In this document: positions 1 through 10,983 of the stretch, piece after piece
Position numbering within the stretch: position 1 is the stretch's first letter
Layout of the letters: each line of letters starts with the position of its first letter
Origin: a virus
Lineage: Duplodnaviria; Caudoviricetes
Virus record (IMG/VR): IMGVR_UViG_2529293276_000003
Span: 4,067-68,066 of that record
DNA: 64,000 nucleotides
Direction: 5' to 3' (one strand)
The notes under the pieces: generated by a model
Database searches by the model: none
Told to the model about the DNA's origin: nothing
The model's input: the letters and a program-made list of their open reading frames with translations, nothing else
Translations under genes and position numbers: made by a program

Positions 1-3000
1 TGATGCAGATTGTTTATCCGTTTCATCAAATATCTGTGAATAACGAGTGTCTTCGTTGCTATCTGTAGTAACCTGTGTTATATTGGTTTCGTTTGAAGCT
101 CCCACATCAGTACGAGCGGAATAGGACTGATTGTGCGTAGGACTGGTTTTGCCATCACCCTTGCCAGTACCATCTTCAAATATCTCAAATGCGGTGATCA
201 CCCAAGCATTACTGCCTTCAGCTTTCCTTAGAGCCACAAAGTAACCTTTGTGAGTAATCTTAATATTTTTTACGCCATTAGATGAATTATAAGCATCTGC
301 TGTACTGCCTTGTGCAATAGTCTCCACAATGTTGTGTGTCAGCATCTCAACCACTTCATCATAACTCATCTTATCCTTACGGATTCTTGCTTCTATGATA
401 TGACTGATGCCTTTAGCTCCTTTGGTTTTACCATTGGTTTTGATGATGCCTGTATCACCCCAAACAAAATCAATCCATCCAATATCGTTACGATACATAG
501 CACGCTTAACATCCGCTTTGGTTGTGATGGCTTTATTCATGGCTTCTGTACCACGCTTAATATTGGCTTGAACTGACTTCATAGCAGAAGCACTAAAGCG
601 AGTATCATTACTTGTTAAGGTCAGTAAATCCACAGGTGGATTATCCATGATGGTTTCAACATTTTGTACAAATGCTTTATATCCATCACCCTTAAAACCA
701 AGCACCTTAGATGCTAAGCGTACCAAGAAATCCATCACAGATGAGATGCCTTTTCTTGGTTTGATACCTAAATCAGCAAGCTCCATAGCGTAATCAATAT
801 AACGCATCATCTCAGGGTCAGTCATACCATAAGCGATAAACTCACTTAAGCCAGCATAATGATTACCATTAGTTGTATCAGCTTCTTGAGATGCTTTGAT
901 GACTTCCATGATTTGATTAACATAAGTTAAATCATCTTCTTTGGTGTCATGACGACTATGCCCATACTTTTTATTAAACGCTACATCTTCTTGCCACTGA
1001 GCCATGACAGCATCAAGCATCTTATTCAGATGATTTAATTCACTGCGTAGGTCTTGAGCGTTAGAGATGATGGCGTACTCAGTCAGAGCGTGTACAAGCT
1101 CATGATTGATAACTCGTAGCTTATTCTCATCGTTACCACTTTGGCTAAAGGTTTGGTTATCCAAAGTCAATGTATGGGTAGTTACATTATAGCTTCCATA
1201 GGCACGAGTACCATTAGGCGTAGTTACATCAGCAAACTTCACAGACATCTTGCTTAGGTGTTGGTTGGCTTTACCCATCAACATCTTATTAAGCTTTAAC
1301 TGTACTTCACTGACATTAACCAAACCTTTAATGGTTTGGTCAAGCTGTTTTAGGTTTTGGATTGTTGGCTCAGTTGGTGTACTGGACGAGTTAGTAAATG
1401 CAGCTCCCTGAGTACCGTCTGTTCCTGTACTTGTTGTGGGAAGTTGGGAAACTTGTTCTGTTGCTCTGGTGTCAGAGAGTTGTACAATTCCAGACTCGCT
1501 TGTTTGCTGTTTTGTAGTATCTGTTCTTTTGTTTGGTTCATAACTCATTACCTTAATAGTTGTATTAAGAGCCAAATCTTTTTCTAATTGATTGATTTGA
1601 TCTACAACCTTATTCTTTTCTTTAAGAGCAGTTTGACGATCAGCATCTGTTACTTGATACTCACCAAATTCACCTGCATACTGATGCAGATAAGCCAAAT
1701 TAGCTAACTGATCTAGTTTATTAAGCTCAGTATCTCTAACTTCATCAACTAGACTGGAGAGTTCTTGGGTAAGCTCAGCAAAGACTTCATTGTCATGGAA
1801 ATCTTTACGAATAACCCCATCTTTAATAAGTGCATAGCTACTTTGGATAACACTGGTTAATGCCCGTAATGACTCAAGCTGACCATGATAACTTACCAAA
1901 GCTTGGAAGGTTGCTCTGTTTTGTTGGGTAATCATATCAAGCTGATTATCAATAGCCCCAATATTTGCATCATGGACATTAATATTAATCTTCTTACCCA
2001 TAGCCATAGCAAAGGATGAGATATAACTATCCATAGACTGTGTTTGAACAGAGTTAGCCAATAGAGCTTTATCTTCAAGATGTATATGTCTTGCAGGACT
2101 ACCAAACGAAGTCGCTTGATACTTACCTGATTTATTTACCAAGAAGAAGCTGTTATTGGTCAGATTCGCTTTATCTACGAACAAAATCTCTGCTAAGCGT
2201 GTTAAACGAACCTTAGCTTTGGATTCATTATTTTGTACAGAATATACATTATGAATCTGTGCCTGAACTTTATCCATCACAGAATGGACAAGCTCTTCAC
2301 GCTCTTTATCAGATAAACCACGATAGCTAATTTCTTTAAGAGCTAATTCGTTTGCCAGTCCCCTATCTAAACCAGTCTCAACTAAAGCATTAGAGATTCT
2401 CTCTGCAACAGTCTGTATAGCACGCTCTTCTACTTCATGATACATTTGAGTAAATAACTCAACTGTACTGCTTAGTATACGCATATTGACTTTATTCTTC
2501 TCAATATAAACAGCTTCATAGTCCTGCAGTACTTCTGCAAGATATTGACCCATAGTAAAGCTATATTTATTATCTAACATAGCTTCATCTTTAGGGCTAA
2601 TCCAAGCTTCTAGCATATATTTGAGATCTAAGTTCTCATTAATAACCACTGCTTTAGGCTCATTATCAATAGTAATATCCCATTGAATAGGCTTTTGTGT
2701 CATGAATGAGAATAAACGGTCTACTGTCATTACTTGGTTTAGAAGCTTAGCTCTTTGGGTGTCATACTCTAACTGAGTCATTTGACCTGCTTCTAGGGCT
2801 TTTTTATTTGCAATATCCTGTTGAGCAGCAAGTGTAATATTATCTTGCATCTCTTTTAAGAAAGTACGAAATACAGCTTTCTTAAGTGATTTAATACCTG
2901 CACCATAGTTAAATGGAATCAAGACACTCTTAGCCACTGCTCGTTTAGTCAGACTCTTTTGTACTCTCATTAATGCACGAAAAACCTGTTTATTATGGTT

Positions 3001-6000
3001 GGCTAGATCTTTTTCTAAATTCGCATGAAACCCCATAATAAAAGCTTCTTGTGCTTTCTCATTAATGACAGCGTTCTTAAAGGCAGTATAATAATCACCC
3101 AAATTCTTATCATGACGAGCATCAAAATAAGATTTAAAGGGGTCATTAAAACTAAAAAAACCCGTGCGTAATAATAACTCTTTATAAAATGCACCATTCC
3201 AAAAGTGAGCCAATGCTGCACCGTTATTTAAACCATCAGAGCCTAAACCAAGTGATGTTGTAAAATTAGCGTGATTATTTTCTTGTGCAGTTTGAAAATC
3301 TGCCCATTCTCTTAGAGCTCTTAAAGAATTAGCTCCCATCTTCATTTCTGCAATAGCACTACTGAGATGATTCATCTCTGTAGATGAAATCTTATCACCT
3401 GCTTGTGCTTTAGAAACAATCTCTGTCGCTTTTTGGATATGCTCTTGGTTTAGGTATTCTATAAAAGCAGGAATAAGCACATAACTGGGCAGCTTATCTA
3501 CGGTAAACCCTTCTGTGAATATTTCTTTAGAACCTGTACTTTCAAAATAAACTTCAATGAAGTCTTCACTGCCTTCCATATTCTCAGCTAATGCACGCAG
3601 GAAGTAAGTCAGGTTTAATTCATCTTTAGTCAAATGTTTAGAATGAATTTCTTTACCATACTCTTTAAGCTTGCTTTGTAAAGAGTCTAATACTGATGAG
3701 CCATCTTTATTCTTAAGCTGTACAGTTACTTTAAAGTTACTAGGCTCAGCCATAGCACGGTGTAGTTTAGAAGATTGATAGTTAAAGACATTACTGTTAT
3801 AGTGCATACGACTATTAACAGCCATAAACATTGTATCCCAGTACTTACGGACACCATCTACTTTTGGTATGCTATTGATGAAATCTACAGCATTTGTCCA
3901 ATCACGCATAACAGCTTCTGCCTTACCTTCTAAACCATCACGGTCATTGATATGAGCTGTTTGTAGTTCACCTTCTTTTAACTTAGCACCAATCATCTCA
4001 AGGAAAGCATCTTCATGTTGGGAAGCCAAATTAGTTAATAGACTAAAGGTAGGTTCATTAATCACATTTGCATGGGCTTGTGCTTTAGCAACACGCTGGG
4101 CTTGTAGGTCAGTAACTGTTGCATCAGTTCGTTTGATTCTACGCTTAACATTAGCAACGCTTTCTTCTATTGGCTTAAGTGATGGCATGCGTACAGCACT
4201 AACACCACCCATAATATCTGTCAGATAGCCTGCTGTACCTTTATTGGCTTCACTGATTTCATTGATACGTTTGTTTATACCTTCACCTTCTTTATTGGTA
4301 ATAGAGACAAAACGAACAGTACCATGTGAATTAAAATCTTTTTCATCAATAACACCACGAACTTCTTCAATAGCTTTTTTATGTTTTTCACTAGAAATGC
4401 TATGTAAGTGAATTAAATCCGCAGATTGCATTGCTGATAATGCCCAAGTACCCAGTGCAGAATACAGACGAGAATCTACCGTAATAGAACCATTTTCTGT
4501 ACGCTGAATGTTTAATGTTTCAGCAATTCGTTTACCTAAATCATCAGCAACCTTGACATAACCTGAGCCAATATACTTATAGGTTTCCCACATTTCTTTA
4601 GTAATGTGAGCATTGTTTTTTTGTTCTACATCCTTACTGGTTAAACCAAGCAAAGCAAGAATATCATCACGCATATTCATAGTATGATTAGCAACGCTAT
4701 TTAGATAGTCATAAGCACCATAACTTAGTGCATCTAAAACATTACTATCAAATTCACCAGTTTGTTTATCATAGAAGTAGTTTGCCAACGCTCTGTTTTC
4801 ATAACCTTCATCCGTTGGTTTAAATACTTGTTTTAGATGCTCACGAAACTCAGCAGTAAACTCAGCAAAATCATTAATCTGTTCTCTTTGTGCTTTTGTA
4901 GGTGGCTCAAGATTTAATATCTGACTGGCTTTAACTGGATTTGTATAAAGCTCTCTGACAAAGTTTTGGATACTACTTAACGGTTTATGTAGTGTCTGTA
5001 CTTGCCTAAAGCTTGTTTTTAAGATATTTCTAACAGCTTTAGAATCCTTTGTTGCAGTAATAGGTTTTGTCAGATCTTCCTCAATATTTTTAGCAGGCTC
5101 ATTTAATTGGCGTATTTTAGCTTCAGAAGATTTAGAGAAATTACCTTCGCTATCTAAAACACTCAAAGAAGTGCTATCACTAACAATACCTAACAGTTTT
5201 GTATACGCTGTAGATTCATCTTTACTAAACCCAAAGAAATTAGTAACAGCATCCATTAAAGCATGATAAGCCTTAGTAACTTTGTTCTTACCACGAGATA
5301 CTTTAACTTGTTTTAGTACAGACTTAACATCTTCATTAAATAAACCAAGCTGTAATAAATCAGCAGCAGAATCCGTTGCTCTCATCAGTAGTGCTTTACT
5401 GTTTTCAGTAAATTTTTGATTTGGGTCAGATAAGATTTTACGCATGTGCTTACGCACATCTTTATTGATACTGTCTATTGTTAAGCGTAATTCACCCAGC
5501 TTGGCTTGTCTGTCAATAACTTCATCATCAAAGAGCGTATCAGTGTTTTGTTTACCTTCTTTTCTATTAGCATCTCTTTGTTTTTTGGCTTCAATGTTAG
5601 CCAAGGCAGTCACATGATCTAGGGTATCTAGTTCATCAGCAATGTTACCAATCTGCTTATGTACCATTGCTTGAGCAATATCACGAGTAATATCTTTACT
5701 ATCTTCACTCACACGGATAATGTCATCATCATAACTGGCTTTTTCGTCATAGCTAGTTTTGTCTTGAATCTTAACTTTAATATCAGGACTATATCTAGAC
5801 AATACACTGATTAGTGCTTGGTTTTCAGCTTGAGATTTATCTTTAGTTTTAATCTGAGATGATTCTATAGAACTGGCTAAATCACTTACTTTAACTGGCT
5901 TATTGATAAAGCTCTTTTCAATAGGCGTATTTGTAATATAAACTGTATCTTCTGCTTTGTTTTCTTCTTTTGCTTTAGAAGTAGATTCTAGTTTACGAAC

Positions 6001-9000
6001 CTGCATTGGTTTTAGTACAGTTTCTTTCGTGATTGCATTACTAGCACGGTTCGTTGGTATAGATGAATTACGCTTTACTGCAACTGCCTCTTGTGGTGTT
6101 ATAAGCTCATCTGCAGAAGATTCAGCCTCTTGGGTAGAGTTTTCTTTTGTATTGGTAGAAACATCTGTAGGAAGCGTCTTTGTCGCTTCTGTGGTGTTAT
6201 TTTGATGAGATTCAAAGACACTAAGGTCAAAACCAGTATTTGTATTTTCATCAATACCAGTTTCAGTAATTCCATTATTATCAGTAATATTAGGTGGAGT
6301 ATTATTTCCTGCATTACCGCTGTTTAAATCAGTATTTGTATTACTAGTACTATTAGTAGCTGTATATTCATTGAACTTATTTAAATCATCTTTAGAAAAG
6401 ACATGGGGTTTATATAAGTTATCTTCTTTACCAAAGGTATTCGTATCAATAGGTCGTTGAATTTCACTATGAAACTGACCATCTGCCATTAATGTACCCA
6501 TATTAGATAGAACATTAAAGACAGCTTGTGGTTGCTCTTTATATGATATTTTTTGTAGTGCTGGGTGTTTACGGAGTTCTTCTACCACTCTAGGAACAAT
6601 CGCAGCTTCACTAAACGCTGAGTTACTCATCTTGTGCTGTACAACAAAACCAGTATTAGGGTCAGCAGCCATCTGTAATAATGCACGACTAAAGTCTTGG
6701 TTATTGCTAACAGCAACACGCATAAAGTCCATATAGCGGTTAGCACTTTCAATCATAGCAGCATCTTTACCTGCCTGCGTACCATCATGCACAATGCTAT
6801 ACATATCCCCACCAAACTCTTCTATCAACTTAAGCTTCTGTTGATCATGAGCGTTGGTTGAATTGACATAGATGGGTGATTGGATAGGTGATCCAAAGAT
6901 ACCTGCTTTAATGACTTCTTTATTTTCATCAGTAAAGACATTACTTCTAACAGTAACTTGACCAGTTTTAGGGTCTTTAGCTGACCCAGTACCACGATAG
7001 ATACTAGATAAAGATACTGTTGCCATTTTACCTTCATCATTGACCTGCCTTTCACCACGCCCAAGCCAAACATAATTAGGTGTTGCCACGCCTTCTTGGA
7101 TTTTACGCTGATATTCACCCACACTACTATCACGAGCCAAAGTATCGTTATATGGGTTTGTAGGCAAACGAAAAGGTTTTCTTTGGGTAGGTACACTAGA
7201 TGGTGTTTTTGTTACAGGTGGTGTAACAGGTATAGATTCTTGTGTAGGTGTTGTTGTAGGCTCTATAGTAGGGTCTGATGTTGTAACATCAGCTACAGGC
7301 GTTTGATTAATATTTGATGCACGAGTAACTTGTACAGGCTGTTGTTGCTGAGATACGCCAGTATTAATTTGACTGAAGTCTGTTAAACCAAAGTCTGATA
7401 CTTTAACTGATTCTTTAATGCGGTCAGATGCACCATGTAACTCATAAGCTTTATCATAACCTTGTTTGATTTGATTAAGATGAGCAGCTTCTTCAATCAA
7501 ATTATTAACAAAGTTTCTTGAGATATTACTAATCTCAATAGCACCTGTTTTAGCACGCAACTCTTTTGAGATACTGCCTTCATGTACTTCCCATTCTTGG
7601 CTATCTGCTTTACGGGCAATATACAACGGCTGTTGATTTTCATCAAAGCTATCCATTGCTTGTTTAGCAGCACTCGCTTTAGATGTATGGCTTTCATTGA
7701 ATCTAGACAAGTGATTATAGTAACTGTCTAGTACGCCAATATCATCTGTCTTTAAGTACTGTACCAAACCTTGTTGGTAGCTTTGTAAACCAATATAACC
7801 ATCTTCAGCACGCTTGGCTTTTTTACCAATATAAATATCATGCTTAACATCGTCTGTATTTTTAGTCGCATTTTCTACAACACGCACTTCCTTTAATAAG
7901 CGAAGTTTCTCAGCGTGTTTTTCACTTAATGCACCTTGTTCTACCAAAATGTTAATCATGTCATCAGAGAGCATCTCAGAATAACGGATGACTTGATCAA
8001 AGGTATCTTGCTGTGCTTTACTGACTGCTTCAGACTCTACAGAGACTTGTTCTTGTTGTGAGTTAGTCTGATTATCAGCAACCTGTGCTTCTAGTGAGCT
8101 AATCTTGTCTTGCAACGCTTTTTGAGCTTCTGCTTCTTTAGTTTTGGTTTTTTCATCTTTTAATTTCGTTATTAAACTTTCTAGTCGCTCTTGTGCTGTA
8201 CGGTTATCATCTACATTTATATTACTGTTATTAGACTGACTAGAAAAAGACCCAGTGTAATTAGAGCCTAATAGACGATTAATATCAGCATGACCCTTAT
8301 CTAACTTGGCTTCATGTGTGCTAGAGTCAAATGATGCACCGCTTTTTAATTTATTTTGACCATAAGCCCAACCAATAGCAGCATGACCCCAGCGTCTGTC
8401 TTTTAAGTCAGGGTTGGCTTGTTTTAAGAAGTTACGAGTATCATAAGTACCACCTCTATACTGACTAAGTGTTATTCCACCACTTTTCATTTCTTGCATA
8501 AAAAAAGCAGCCATTGCATCTAAACTGGCTTGTGTTTGTGGAATACCTGACTCTTTAACATCAATTCCCCTATCTTTTAAAAACTTAAATAGGTTAGTAC
8601 GCCTGCCTTGTTGCCAACTGATGAAGCCAAAGTTATTAGCACCATTAGCATGGTCTGAGTGAGAACCAAACATAGTCTTAGCACTAAAGCCATTTTCACG
8701 GTTTACCTCACCAATTAAGTAGCGTGCCTGCCCATCAGTAAAGCCTGCTTTACGAAAAGCCGTATAAGTACCCATAATCAAGTCATCACGACTCTTATTG
8801 CTATTATCAATACTGAAGTTAGTTGAGTACTGAGATGTACCTGTTACTGCTTGTCCTTGTGCTTGGGTAATACCTACTTTGTCATAAATTGGTTTATACC
8901 ATCCACTATCAGGGTGTGCTTTGTATTTATCTGCTTTAGCATAATCAAAACCACCAAGGAAAGTTACACCCATTTCCTTAGCAATATTAGCTAAGTCAGT

Positions 9001-10983
9001 ATTCATGCGAGTACCAAGCTTACTGTCATCTTTAAAGTTATTAGCAACACCCATAACTTGTACGGATGCACCATTATCTTTTAGATACTTAATCTGCTTA
9101 CGGATTGTGTTTAAATCAGCCTTGGTATTATTAGATAAGCCAGTAGATAGAACGACAGTTTTACCTTGTAATTCACTCTTACTAAGTTTCGTGATGGTAT
9201 TAAGTACTTCATTAGGATTACGACCGTCTTTACTGTAAGAAGTAACACCAGCCTTTTTATATTGATTACCAAACGCATTGGCAATGCTATCACCAATGGC
9301 AATAACGCCTGTAGATGCTTGCTGTATATTAGTAGTACCAGTCCCAACACCATCCACATTAGTATATTCAGGGATTTCAGGTTGATAATTAACAGCATCC
9401 GTCAGTTGTTGGTCTGCTTGTTGTTTGCGGTTATGATAAGCTTCAGCATTTAGGTCAAGAATACGCTGTAAGACTTCATCAGAAGACATTTCTTGGGATA
9501 ACTGTAAGTTACTTACTTGTTCTAACGCAGCAACGGTATCTTGTAAGGGTTGTACTTGGTTATTAAACCAATCATTTCGCTTTTTTTGTAATTTCTCTTT
9601 TTTCTTACCATCAGGCAGTTGTGCCAGTTTTTCATCAAATTCAGTAAGACGACTCATAGCCGTTGTTAATGCTTGAGTCTGTTCAGCTTTAGCACTATCA
9701 ATATCTATCTCACCTAAAGCAGCTTTGCCTGCACTGACTTGATAAGCATAATTAGGATCATAGTTTTTGTTATTTGGGTCTGTCTTTAAAGTAGACCTAA
9801 AACCCTTAACATCCCCTACTGCTGCTTTTATGTTACCTACTATAGCAGGACCACCTGCCATACCAAAGCCTACAGCAGCTTCCATACCTGCATCTTTACC
9901 TACTTTACCCCAATCAATTTTACCTTCTTTTTGTTGTTGGTTTAGAGCAGATTCTAATGCACCTTGTACAGCTTCCTGACCTGTTTCAGTAGCTGTATTA
10001 ACAGCTGTTGTACGAGCTCTATTTGCAGAGTTAGCTAATATCCTTGAAACACCTCCATTAGCAATGATTTGTTCAGTAGAAAATGAAGAAGGCAATCCTT
10101 TACTAACAAGACCTAGACCTGCACCTGTAGCGAGATCATAAGCCATATCCCTATGCGTGCTATAGCCCTTATCCTTTGCTGTATCACCCATCTCTACAAC
10201 AGCAGATGTAACTGCTGTACCTATTCCTGCTCTTGTACTTGCTGATAAAGCTGCATTAGCTACCTTTGCAGCCCTGCCAATAGCACCTGCAGGAAGTGCT
10301 TGGGGTAAAGATGATCCAGCACCTGAAGCCAAGAGATTAGGTTTAGTTAAACTATGCCCAAAAGTAGCAGCAAATTTGAGTAAAGGGTTTTCAATATCTT
10401 TAACTGCTTCATCTACTTCAGCTTTTTGACGGTAATATTCATTAGAGTATTTTTTAGCTATATATTCTTCTATAGCCTTTGCATCATAGATTCCCAGCTT
10501 CTTTAATGCAGCTTGATATATCCCTGCATTGACAACTCGCCCTGCTATCTTCTGTTCACTCTCAGGCATTGGAATTAAAGGTTTGGAGTCTCCAGTAAAC
10601 ATAGAATAAGCGTTATTAACTGGATTAACAACATGCTGTGTAAATAGTGTATCAGCTGTTGCTAAACCACCTTGAATTAATGAGTTTACACCTGAAGCAG
10701 CACCCCATCCTGTATCAGTGAGTATGTTACCTCCGTTATGTCTAGCTGTGACTTTAGGAGAATATACAGGAGCAATCTCAGGTGTAATAGTGTTATTTGT
10801 AGCAGCTTGCTTATAAAAACTATTTTCTGAAGTCAATCGTGCAGCTTCTTCATCTGTAAGACGCTTCTGTCTTTCGCTATGGGTTTCAATACCCATCCTC
10901 TTTTGGGCTTGTTCTACTTGAGCAATATTGCGTGATTGGGCTGCTTGTAATTTTTGAAGAACTTTATCAAGATCAGTACTCAT
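1..10983 (-). CDS. N4-like virion-encapsidated RNA polymerase, polyvalent, 3'-truncated by the window edge (at least 3661 aa)
   Basis: ATG at 10983 with upstream GGATAG. Hand reading found no in-frame stop in the stretches checked, and all motifs are in one frame to position 1: VNSRMHY..YQSSKLHRAM (~3770-3820), motif A SDGLNNG (~3220-3240), motif B RAVAKSVLIPFNYG (R-x3-K-x7-YG, ~2900-2945), motif C NVHDA (~1965-1980). Located next to N4-type structural genes. Confidence 0.95.
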   Translation of the reverse strand, partial: MSTDLDKVLQKLQAAQSRNIAQVEQAQKRMGIETHSERQKRLTDEEAARLTSENSFYKQAATNNTITPEIAPVYSPKVTARHNGGNILTDTGWGAASGVNSLIQGGLATADTLFTQHVVNPVNNAYSMFTGDSKPLIPMPESEQKIAGRVVNAGIYQAALKKLGIYDAKAIEEYIAKKYSNEYYRQKAEVDEAVKDIENPLLKFAATFGHSLTKPNLLASGAGSSLPQALPAGAIGRAAKVANAALSASTRAGIGTAVTSAVVEMGDTAKDKGYSTHRDMAYDLATGAGLGLVSKGLPSSFSTEQIIANGGVSRILANSANRARTTAVNTATETGQEAVQGALESALNQQQKEGKIDWGKVGKDAGMEAAVGFGMAGGPAIVGNIKAAVGDVKGFRSTLKTDPNNKNYDPNYAYQVSAGKAALGEIDIDSAKAEQTQALTTAMSRLTEFDEKLAQLPDGKKKEKLQKKRNDWFNNQVQPLQDTVAALEQVSNLQLSQEMSSDEVLQRILDLNAEAYHNRKQQADQQLTDAVNYQPEIPEYTNVDGVGTGTTNIQQASTGVIAIGDSIANAFGNQYKKAGVTSYSKDGRNPNEVLNTITKLSKSELQGKTVVLSTGLSNNTKADLNTIRKQIKYLKDNGASVQVMGVANNFKDDSKLGTRMNTDLANIAKEMGVTFLGGFDYAKADKYKAHPDSGWYKPIYDKVGITQAQGQAVTGTSQYSTNFSIDNSNKSRDDLIMGTYTAFRKAGFTDGQARYLIGEVNRENGFSAKTMFGSHSDHANGANNFGFISWQQGRRTNLFKFLKDRGIDVKESGIPQTQASLDAMAAFFMQEMKSGGITLSQYRGGTYDTRNFLKQANPDLKDRRWGHAAIGWAYGQNKLKSGASFDSSTHEAKLDKGHADINRLLGSNYTGSFSSQSNNSNINVDDNRTAQERLESLITKLKDEKTKTKEAEAQKALQDKISSLEAQVADNQTNSQQEQVSVESEAVSKAQQDTFDQVIRYSEMLSDDMINILVEQGALSEKHAEKLRLLKEVRVVENATKNTDDVKHDIYIGKKAKRAEDGYIGLQSYQQGLVQYLKTDDIGVLDSYYNHLSRFNESHTSKASAAKQAMDSFDENQQPLYIARKADSQEWEVHEGSISKELRAKTGAIEISNISRNFVNNLIEEAAHLNQIKQGYDKAYELHGASDRIKESVKVSDFGLTDFSQINTGVSQQQQPVQVTRASNINQTPVADVTTSDPTIEPTTTPTQESIPVTPPVTKTPSSVPTQRKPFRLPTNPYNDTLARDSSVGEYQRKIQEGVATPNYVWLGRGERQVNDEGKMATVSLSSIYRGTGSAKDPKTGQVTVRSNVFTDENKEVIKAGIFGSPIQSPIYVNSTNAHDQQKLKLIEEFGGDMYSIVHDGTQAGKDAAMIESANRYMDFMRVAVSNNQDFSRALLQMAADPNTGFVVQHKMSNSAFSEAAIVPRVVEELRKHPALQKISYKEQPQAVFNVLSNMGTLMADGQFHSEIQRPIDTNTFGKEDNLYKPHVFSKDDLNKFNEYTATNSTSNTNTDLNSGNAGNNTPPNITDNNGITETGIDENTNTGFDLSVFESHQNNTTEATKTLPTDVSTNTKENSTQEAESSADELITPQEAVAVKRNSSIPTNRASNAITKETVLKPMQVRKLESTSKAKEENKAEDTVYITNTPIEKSFINKPVKVSDLASSIESSQIKTKDKSQAENQALISVLSRYSPDIKVKIQDKTSYDEKASYDDDIIRVSEDSKDITRDIAQAMVHKQIGNIADELDTLDHVTALANIEAKKQRDANRKEGKQNTDTLFDDEVIDRQAKLGELRLTIDSINKDVRKHMRKILSDPNQKFTENSKALLMRATDSAADLLQLGLFNEDVKSVLKQVKVSRGKNKVTKAYHALMDAVTNFFGFSKDESTAYTKLLGIVSDSTSLSVLDSEGNFSKSSEAKIRQLNEPAKNIEEDLTKPITATKDSKAVRNILKTSFRQVQTLHKPLSSIQNFVRELYTNPVKASQILNLEPPTKAQREQINDFAEFTAEFREHLKQVFKPTDEGYENRALANYFYDKQTGEFDSNVLDALSYGAYDYLNSVANHTMNMRDDILALLGLTSKDVEQKNNAHITKEMWETYKYIGSGYVKVADDLGKRIAETLNIQRTENGSITVDSRLYSALGTWALSAMQSADLIHLHSISSEKHKKAIEEVRGVIDEKDFNSHGTVRFVSITNKEGEGINKRINEISEANKGTAGYLTDIMGGVSAVRMPSLKPIEESVANVKRRIKRTDATVTDLQAQRVAKAQAHANVINEPTFSLLTNLASQHEDAFLEMIGAKLKEGELQTAHINDRDGLEGKAEAVMRDWTNAVDFINSIPKVDGVRKYWDTMFMAVNSRMHYNSNVFNYQSSKLHRAMAEPSNFKVTVQLKNKDGSSVLDSLQSKLKEYGKEIHSKHLTKDELNLTYFLRALAENMEGSEDFIEVYFESTGSKEIFTEGFTVDKLPSYVLIPAFIEYLNQEHIQKATEIVSKAQAGDKISSTEMNHLSSAIAEMKMGANSLRALREWADFQTAQENNHANFTTSLGLGSDGLNNGAALAHFWNGAFYKELLLRTGFFSFNDPFKSYFDARHDKNLGDYYTAFKNAVINEKAQEAFIMGFHANLEKDLANHNKQVFRALMRVQKSLTKRAVAKSVLIPFNYGAGIKSLKKAVFRTFLKEMQDNITLAAQQDIANKKALEAGQMTQLEYDTQRAKLLNQVMTVDRLFSFMTQKPIQWDITIDNEPKAVVINENLDLKYMLEAWISPKDEAMLDNKYSFTMGQYLAEVLQDYEAVYIEKNKVNMRILSSTVELFTQMYHEVEERAIQTVAERISNALVETGLDRGLANELALKEISYRGLSDKEREELVHSVMDKVQAQIHNVYSVQNNESKAKVRLTRLAEILFVDKANLTNNSFFLVNKSGKYQATSFGSPARHIHLEDKALLANSVQTQSMDSYISSFAMAMGKKININVHDANIGAIDNQLDMITQQNRATFQALVSYHGQLESLRALTSVIQSSYALIKDGVIRKDFHDNEVFAELTQELSSLVDEVRDTELNKLDQLANLAYLHQYAGEFGEYQVTDADRQTALKEKNKVVDQINQLEKDLALNTTIKVMSYEPNKRTDTTKQQTSESGIVQLSDTRATEQVSQLPTTSTGTDGTQGAAFTNSSSTPTEPTIQNLKQLDQTIKGLVNVSEVQLKLNKMLMGKANQHLSKMSVKFADVTTPNGTRAYGSYNVTTHTLTLDNQTFSQSGNDENKLRVINHELVHALTEYAIISNAQDLRSELNHLNKMLDAVMAQWQEDVAFNKKYGHSRHDTKEDDLTYVNQIMEVIKASQEADTTNGNHYAGLSEFIAYGMTDPEMMRYIDYAMELADLGIKPRKGISSVMDFLVRLASKVLGFKGDGYKAFVQNVETIMDNPPVDLLTLTSNDTRFSASAMKSVQANIKRGTEAMNKAITTKADVKRAMYRNDIGWIDFVWGDTGIIKTNGKTKGAKGISHIIEARIRKDKMSYDEVVEMLTHNIVETIAQGSTADAYNSSNGVKNIKITHKGYFVALRKAEGSNAWVITAFEIFEDGTGKGDGKTSPTHNQSYSARTDVGASNETNITQVTTDSNEDTRYSQIFDETDKQSAS

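Follow-up and report, generated by a model that had tools for sequence, protein, structure and literature searches.

A predicted SGNH esterase and a gp13-type lysozyme in tandem within the virion RNA polymerase of a Moraxella prophage: a candidate unit for de-acetylating and then cutting the bacterial cell wall

The N-terminal third of the giant virion RNA polymerase (vRNAP) of a Moraxella prophage holds, between low-complexity linkers on both sides, a module of two domains, a compact predicted esterase of the SGNH type and a lysozyme domain of the phi29 gp13 type. We favour, with modest confidence, a reading in which this module is a periplasmic entry unit, whose predicted esterase would remove the 6-O-acetyl group of MurNAc and whose muramidase would then cut the strand. 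Such a 'de-O-acetylate then cut' action is the best-supported and most economical reading of the module. It is based on the two folds, the conservation of catalytic-type residues, purifying selection, the wall-hydrolase company kept by the SGNH family and the patA-patB-ape1 genes of the host. From these we infer an esterase activity directed at peptidoglycan that would precede the cutting of the strand, in a vRNAP that would be ejected in the manner of N4.

The window, by which is meant the whole stretch of 64,000 nucleotides that was analysed, opens within a single open frame on the minus strand (1–10,983) encoding residues 1–3661 of the vRNAP. The gene extends past the left edge of the window, and its full product, taken from the 68-kb record, is 4801 residues long. 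Residues 3638–4761 of this product match positions 2257–3360 of the PHROG 2206 profile, 'virion RNA polymerase', with an E value of 2.4e-283, which bears out the identity given to the protein in the initial annotation; phrog_19273 also matches it, over the full length. Judged from its sequence, the giant minus-strand frame encodes a Moraxella prophage's virion RNA polymerase of the N4 type. Two further giant proteins, P0007 and P0051, are 25–29% identical to it over most of the length, the Pfam domain vRNAP_dom_2 being present in P0007. The two-domain piece itself is 98% identical to its counterpart in Moraxella catarrhalis CCUG 353, 90% to that in M. canis and 38% to that in M. boevrei, and a megablast search of 50,697 phage records, a set from which close relatives may be missing, returned no match to the module region. 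Ahead of the first N4-alignable block, the vRNAP has some 357 residues more than the PHROG profile, a surplus of approximately the size of the esterase–lysozyme module.

The first domain, a predicted compact SGNH-fold (GDSL-type) esterase, has refined limits of residues 559–700 (8884–9309, minus strand), and it is only this region of ca 140 residues that is common to its relatives. When 1.84 billion cluster representatives were searched exhaustively with HMMER, at least 254 reached E ≤ 1e-3, 55 of them E ≤ 1e-10; clusters of the family were defined at 50% identity. The motifs IAIGDSIA, KDGRN, VVLSTGLSN and KAHPDSGWY, from which the domain had initially been recognised, are present in the translation of the first 1200 residues where they had been placed (with GDS at 9286–9294), and they coincide with invariant or near-invariant columns of the family across 143 aligned domains, the set to which all conservation counts refer. 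Such agreement goes well beyond chance. Block I, G564-D565-S566 (9286–9294, minus strand), contains the predicted nucleophile Ser566, with G in 143/143, D in 142/143 and S in 138/143 of the domains, while Gly587 of block II is kept in 135/143. Block III, G615-L-S-N618 (9130–9141, minus strand), which is spelled G-x-S-N and not G-x-N-D, provides the predicted oxyanion-hole residue Asn618 (N618 in 140/143, G615 in 143/143). Block V, D685-K-Y-K-A-H690 (8914–8931, minus strand), provides His690, the predicted general base, which is kept in 136/143. The atypical D-x4-H form of this last block, flagged from the start as a sign that the domain could be inactive, is real. Three residues before His690 stands Tyr687, where 125 of the 143 relatives have the Asp of a classical D-x-x-H, and the nearest Asp, D685, is five residues before the histidine. 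Two diverged relatives, P0004 and the M. boevrei copy, have this DKYKAHP variant too.

Searches with Pfam on residues 541–740 gave chance-level matches only (Csa1, CutC, KxDL), and the GDSL models PF00657 and PF13472 had no match in the vRNAP at E ≤ 1. Among 60 relatives, GDSL matches occur in 2–3, where they may lie outside the SGNH domain. The family as a whole falls outside current Pfam models. Nothing meaningful was returned by phmmer with the SGNH piece against PDB sequences; the family profile, searched against the PDB, matched SGNH chains only, weakly (E ~0.01) and with blocks I and V aligned correctly. An AlphaFold2 model of the domain, built from a 38-row alignment, has a core pLDDT of >90, falling to ~81–83 in the loop that carries the histidine, and displays a three-layer alpha/beta/alpha fold with a parallel sheet. 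With this model, Foldseek returned 83 PDB matches at E ≤ 1e-3, of which the top-ranked are SGNH/GDSL enzymes; the nominal best is the OatA transferase domain, tied with many esterases. Neighbours in the ESM Atlas are GDSL-like clusters, among them viral ones of ~140 residues. The first domain is accordingly modelled as having an SGNH fold, and the original SGNH assignment is upheld by the conservation of the family and by this predicted fold.

A low-complexity linker (residues 701–727; 8803–8883, minus strand), with pLDDT values below 50–70 and alignment columns that are mostly gaps, leads to the second domain. Past it the translation gives AFRKAGFTDGQARYLIGEVNRENG, FGFISWQQGRRTNL and LDAMAAFFMQEM, which are the lysozyme motifs that had been reported there. 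The domain, a lysozyme of the phi29 gp13 type (Pfam Phage_lysozyme2), has refined limits of residues 728–906 (8266–8802, minus strand), and its model has the helical fold of gp13-type lysozymes. The Pfam match is marginal, with PF18013 scoring 28.3 bits on a 200-residue piece (731–930) against a gathering cut-off of 28.2. The predicted catalytic acid, Glu763 (R-E-N-G-F; 8695–8697, minus strand), is the only invariant Glu in a 10-sequence alignment and ends helix 2 of the model (model helix 25–39); in gp13 and GH184 the catalytic glutamates, Glu45 and Glu41 respectively, also sit at the end of helix 2 (PMC10394673). The Phage_lysozyme2 assignment with a putative catalytic Glu is in this way confirmed, PF18013 being at threshold and Glu763 invariant. 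In PrgK MUR, a gp13-type domain, muramidase activity has been measured (bioRxiv 10.1101/2024.02.15.580431). By tblastn, 17 records of Acinetobacter phages have the domain in a tape-measure or tail-tip lysozyme protein, at 35–39% identity and E values down to 4e-23, and further phage records beyond Acinetobacter also match it; the tape-measure proteins of the Acinetobacter phages have the homologous lysozyme without an SGNH domain. There are no homologues of similar length to the lysozyme piece at E ≤ 1e-5, so the domain seems to occur mainly inside longer proteins.

Both domains are under purifying selection, with dN/dS ~0.1. Against the M. canis copy, the SGNH domain has a value of 0.105 and the lysozyme one of 0.099, as compared to 0.168 for the whole 390-residue piece including linkers, and all the putative catalytic residues are kept.

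The company of the SGNH family is largely that of wall hydrolases. Among 60 full-length members, the Pfam partners are SLT (9), Phage_lysozyme2 (8, with E values down to 2.5e-15), Phage_lysozyme (3), M23 (3) and VanY (2), along with single instances of VgrG3_C, CHAP, Hydrolase_2, SLT_2, M15 and PG_binding_1, and the only partners outside peptidoglycan cleavage or binding are a few GDSL matches and one to T4SS. A lysozyme of the vRNAP type accompanies the SGNH domain, in either order, in 9 of 150 representatives (local jackhmmer). The carriers in Moraxellaceae likewise have wall-hydrolase partners, and a stand-alone member of the family adjoins an SLT gene. With regard to the proteins in which the domain resides, the family is found in three diverged giant vRNAPs, in a protein at the tape-measure position of a Mu-like prophage of Helicobacter pametensis, in a large protein encoded beside T4 baseplate-hub genes and in a T4-like cyanophage, in whose host we know of no wall O-acetylation. 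Cultured phages, searched by tblastn with the family members P0005 and P0081, gave only the H. pametensis prophage and weak matches in Salmonella and Escherichia phages; P0003, P0004, P0007 and P0011 are encoded on metagenomic contigs. From such sequence contexts, the pairing of esterase and hydrolase is not special to vRNAPs, and the family resides mostly in tape-measure-like proteins and others of the tail or baseplate region. It may be, moreover, that the wall-hydrolase company marks the class of protein and not the substrate, such hydrolases being common in ejected phage proteins.

Peptidoglycan O-acetylation serves mucosal pathogens as a defence against lysozyme, and is also used by bacteria to control their own lytic transglycosylases; we know of no prior treatment of whether, or how, an entering phage must contend with it. 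According to a review that counts M. catarrhalis and M. canis among the 'known and hypothetical' producers, the modification blocks lysozymes and keeps lytic transglycosylases from acting (PMC6174289, Table 1). The suggestion that the host be checked for patA/patB gave a positive answer, in that M. catarrhalis has three genes in a row encoding an MBOAT protein (PatA-like), a DUF459/PatB-like protein and Ape1. The PatB-like gene matches NF045704 (E 7e-98) without reaching the equivalog cut-off; the Ape1 gene has Ape1_N (PF22753; E 1.8e-40) together with GDSL.

Across 401 Moraxellaceae genomes, the SGNH domain is present in 9 and Ape1_N in 41, and the two coincide, Ape1_N being found in 8 of the 9 SGNH carriers versus 33 of the 392 non-carriers (Fisher p 5e-8, uncorrected for phylogeny). 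This association is confounded by genus, since Moraxella-like genomes are where both Ape1 and these prophages tend to occur. The eight Ape1-positive carriers have the SGNH domain in different proteins, from 254 to 4967 residues in length and with different partner hydrolases, which speaks for a link to the host. On the other hand, the association fades once conditioned on the lysozyme. In 27 Ape1-negative Moraxellaceae genomes a homologous lysozyme is present and the SGNH domain is not, and three Ape1-positive genomes have the lysozyme and lack the esterase; among genomes with the lysozyme, the esterase accompanies it in 2 of 5 Ape1-positive versus 1 of 28 Ape1-negative ones (p 0.053). M. boevrei is a counter-example to the O-acetylation link, in that its draft genome, despite encoding a protein with the lysozyme followed by the SGNH domain, gave no MBOAT, PatB or Ape1_N, the acyltransferase-type genes found being two plain AT3 only. 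A class-level sample of 400 Gammaproteobacteria genomes contained no SGNH carrier besides the host.

In the sequence of events that we propose, the vRNAP, packed in the capsid, would exit via the short tail ahead of the DNA. Once in the periplasm, its SGNH esterase, by means of Ser566, His690, Gly587 and Asn618, would take the 6-O-acetyl groups off MurNAc, these being the lysozyme-blocking groups that PatA/PatB of the host would have added. The adjacent gp13-type muramidase, through Glu763, would then cut the glycan strand, giving a local hole for the passage of the ejected protein and the DNA. In N4, a few copies of the vRNAP are held above the portal and leave through the tail ahead of the DNA, injection of the genome is reported to depend on the N-terminal domain, and the tail is too short to reach across the periplasm (PMC4496689). 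Standing against the entry-unit reading are the replacement of the D-x-x-H Asp by Tyr687, the cases of M. boevrei and the T4-like cyanophage, and the three Ape1-positive genomes that have only the lysozyme.

An SGNH fold is also compatible with the main rival reading, an esterase of the lipase, phospholipase or lysophospholipase type, which would act on lipids of the outer or inner membrane or on the lipid anchor of a lipoprotein and help the ejected protein across the membranes, with the lysozyme alone handling the wall. The cyanophage and M. boevrei fit such an enzyme better. We nevertheless hold it to be unlikely, as the partner domains target peptidoglycan and none of them is membrane-active or lipid-binding, the domain is nearly confined, within Moraxellaceae, to Ape1-positive genomes, and at ~140 residues it is minimal, lids being typical of lipases. 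Tyr687 and the less sure modelling of the histidine loop raise, in addition, the prospect of a domain that is catalytically weak or dead in this vRNAP, and that would bind glycan for the muramidase or act as its spacer. This is improbable in our view, given that the Ser, the His, the Gly of block II and the Asn of block III are all intact, that the DKYKAHP variant is shared with diverged relatives and that the domain is under purifying selection; a Ser-His dyad, furthermore, suffices in some SGNH esterases, those of the CE2 family.

The structural match to OatA could be taken to mean that the domain is an O-acetyltransferase like OatA-C or PatB, altering the wall after entry, for instance to exclude other phages. 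To this we attach very little weight, since many esterases tie with OatA in that comparison, no acetyl-donor partner is present (neither MBOAT nor AT3 is fused or adjacent) and a transferase fused to a muramidase would counteract it. As regards other substrates for an esterase, a surface glycan (LOS or capsule) was considered and is unlikely, because the capsid encloses the domain up to the moment of ejection and because M. catarrhalis, to our knowledge, has neither a capsule nor an O-antigen.

The preferred reading, in which the esterase unblocks the wall for the muramidase, invites comparison with several known systems. Ape1 of Neisseria, which the Moraxella host also encodes, is likewise of the SGNH fold and is a periplasmic serine esterase; by analogy, the phage domain would share its role of removing the MurNAc 6-O-acetyl group and thereby enabling glycan-cleaving enzymes. 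Unlike Ape1, the phage domain is without Ape1_N (PF22753, searched for in the vRNAP), is of ~140 residues as against ~400 and would be delivered by the virion; hhalign of the family profile against the host Ape1 detected no relation. The C-terminal domain of OatA (S. aureus 6wn9/6vjp, S. pneumoniae 5ufy) is 16% identical to the phage SGNH domain, a likeness tied with that of unrelated SGNH esterases. OatA adds acetyl and has a membrane AT3 donor domain as its fusion partner, whereas the phage domain is without a donor partner. With phi29 gp13 (PF18013), a tail-knob protein in which a lysozyme is joined to an M23 peptidase, the phage lysozyme shares 10% identity, and here the lysozyme is joined to a predicted esterase in a polymerase.

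For SGNH domains in virion lysins, the closest earlier case is Gp44 (Tal) of Staphylococcus phage phi11, a wall-degrading virion protein with a C-terminal SGNH domain, of a phage whose host O-acetylates its wall. That domain is, however, of a different and larger type (its HHpred match is the carbohydrate esterase 2WAO), belongs to the baseplate protein of a siphophage of Gram-positive bacteria and has a putative activity. SGNH deacetylases are also known from the tail fibres or spikes of N4-like phages, gp63.1 of G7C being one such protein. Others are those of the N4-like phage Possum and its relatives (PMC9569702), which place an SGNH esterase in a Schitoviridae virion, as here. These fibre and spike proteins are external and receptor-binding and deacetylate surface polysaccharide, whereas the vRNAP domain is capsid-internal and would meet its substrate only after ejection. 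The vRNAP DR90_1081 of a Moraxella prophage (Iyer et al. 2017, PMC5512222) is of one kind with the protein described here, and the two probably share a lineage; both have an N4-like RNA polymerase fused to lysozyme, PBECR1 and metallopeptidase domains. Iyer et al. described such 'polyvalent proteins' and proposed that their lysozymes breach the wall at entry, with no SGNH, GDSL or esterase domain being mentioned (PMC5512222).

The initial annotation knew of no earlier account of the pairing within a vRNAP. This holds for the SGNH domain and for the idea of the pairing, and does not hold for the fusion of lysozyme and PBECR1 to a vRNAP, which had been published (Iyer 2017, PMC5512222). Literature joining virion RNA polymerases with SGNH returned tail-fibre deacetylases and none on a polymerase. 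What is new, though unproven, is the SGNH family, its occurrence in vRNAPs and the notion that the wall is unblocked and then cut. Extending the idea from the module to the family is more tentative, albeit plausible: the compact SGNH family, with at least 254 clusters at 50% identity, may constitute undescribed, virion-delivered peptidoglycan O-acetylesterases, a counter-measure to wall O-acetylation carried beside whichever wall hydrolase is ejected, with human mucosal pathogens among the hosts (Moraxella, and a Helicobacter prophage).

Should the SGNH domain be a wall de-O-acetylase, it would represent a new class of enzyme among virion-associated lysins, and its action would account for how muramidase-bearing phages infect hosts that O-acetylate their walls. 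It would also be a small, portable 'unblocking' domain of ~140 residues, of possible use as a helper to lysins against lysozyme-resistant bacteria. For the N4-type vRNAPs themselves, it would give a function to part of an N-terminal region that is required for injection and is otherwise without an assigned role.

The N-terminal region of the virion RNA polymerase (vRNAP) is longer than that of the N4-type profile. In the profile alignment of this region (window 8194-10983, minus strand), residues 925-1190 of the protein correspond to positions 568-814 of the N4-type profile PHROG 2206, such that the vRNAP is longer than the profile by some 357 residues upstream of residue 925. The module formed by the SGNH esterase-type domain and the phi29 gp13-type lysozyme is 348 residues long, approximately equal to this surplus, and it looks as if it had been inserted as a cassette into the N-terminal region of the vRNAP. 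A further fused stretch lies at residues 3495-3600 of the same protein (window 184-501, minus strand), a fusion for which there is precedent in a Moraxella prophage vRNAP (Iyer et al. 2017, PMC5512222).

The SGNH domain is also found in other phages and prophages. In the Mu-like Helicobacter pametensis prophage BK070131, an 892-residue protein (L001:2438-5116, plus strand), in which the domain shows 40-52% identity, is encoded at the tape-measure position, with tail genes on one side and gp45/gp47-like baseplate genes on the other. In T4-like marine phages the domain is carried by proteins of ~1200 residues, as in Synechococcus phage S-H38 (L002:1273-4863, plus strand) and the metagenomic P0011 (L031), and the gene of one of this pair is adjoined by the baseplate-hub genes T4_baseplate and Gp51_C. 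Some family members (P0035, P0010, P0016 and P0138) contain two SGNH copies in tandem, and a single 1110-residue polypeptide of the Moraxellaceae genome G189 (L022:4386-7715, minus strand) combines four wall-directed domains, M23 peptidase, VanY, SGNH and CHAP.

A counterpart of the module occurs in an 836-residue protein of M. boevrei DSM 14165 (L021:4477-6984, minus strand), where the order is lysozyme then SGNH, the reverse of that in the vRNAP; both proteins have the DKYKAHP variant of block V. The wall O-acetylation and de-O-acetylation genes patA, patB and ape1 were sought in the draft genome of this strain, and none was found.

N4-like phages are usually viewed as strictly lytic. The N4-like element studied here, comprising the whole window, is classified by IMG/VR as a provirus, and near-identical or related copies are present in M. 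catarrhalis and M. canis. One such element, N4-like and encoding a virion RNAP, is embedded in a large bacterial contig, contig_7 of M. catarrhalis CCUG 353 (L005), at 415323-436492 of 454583 bp.
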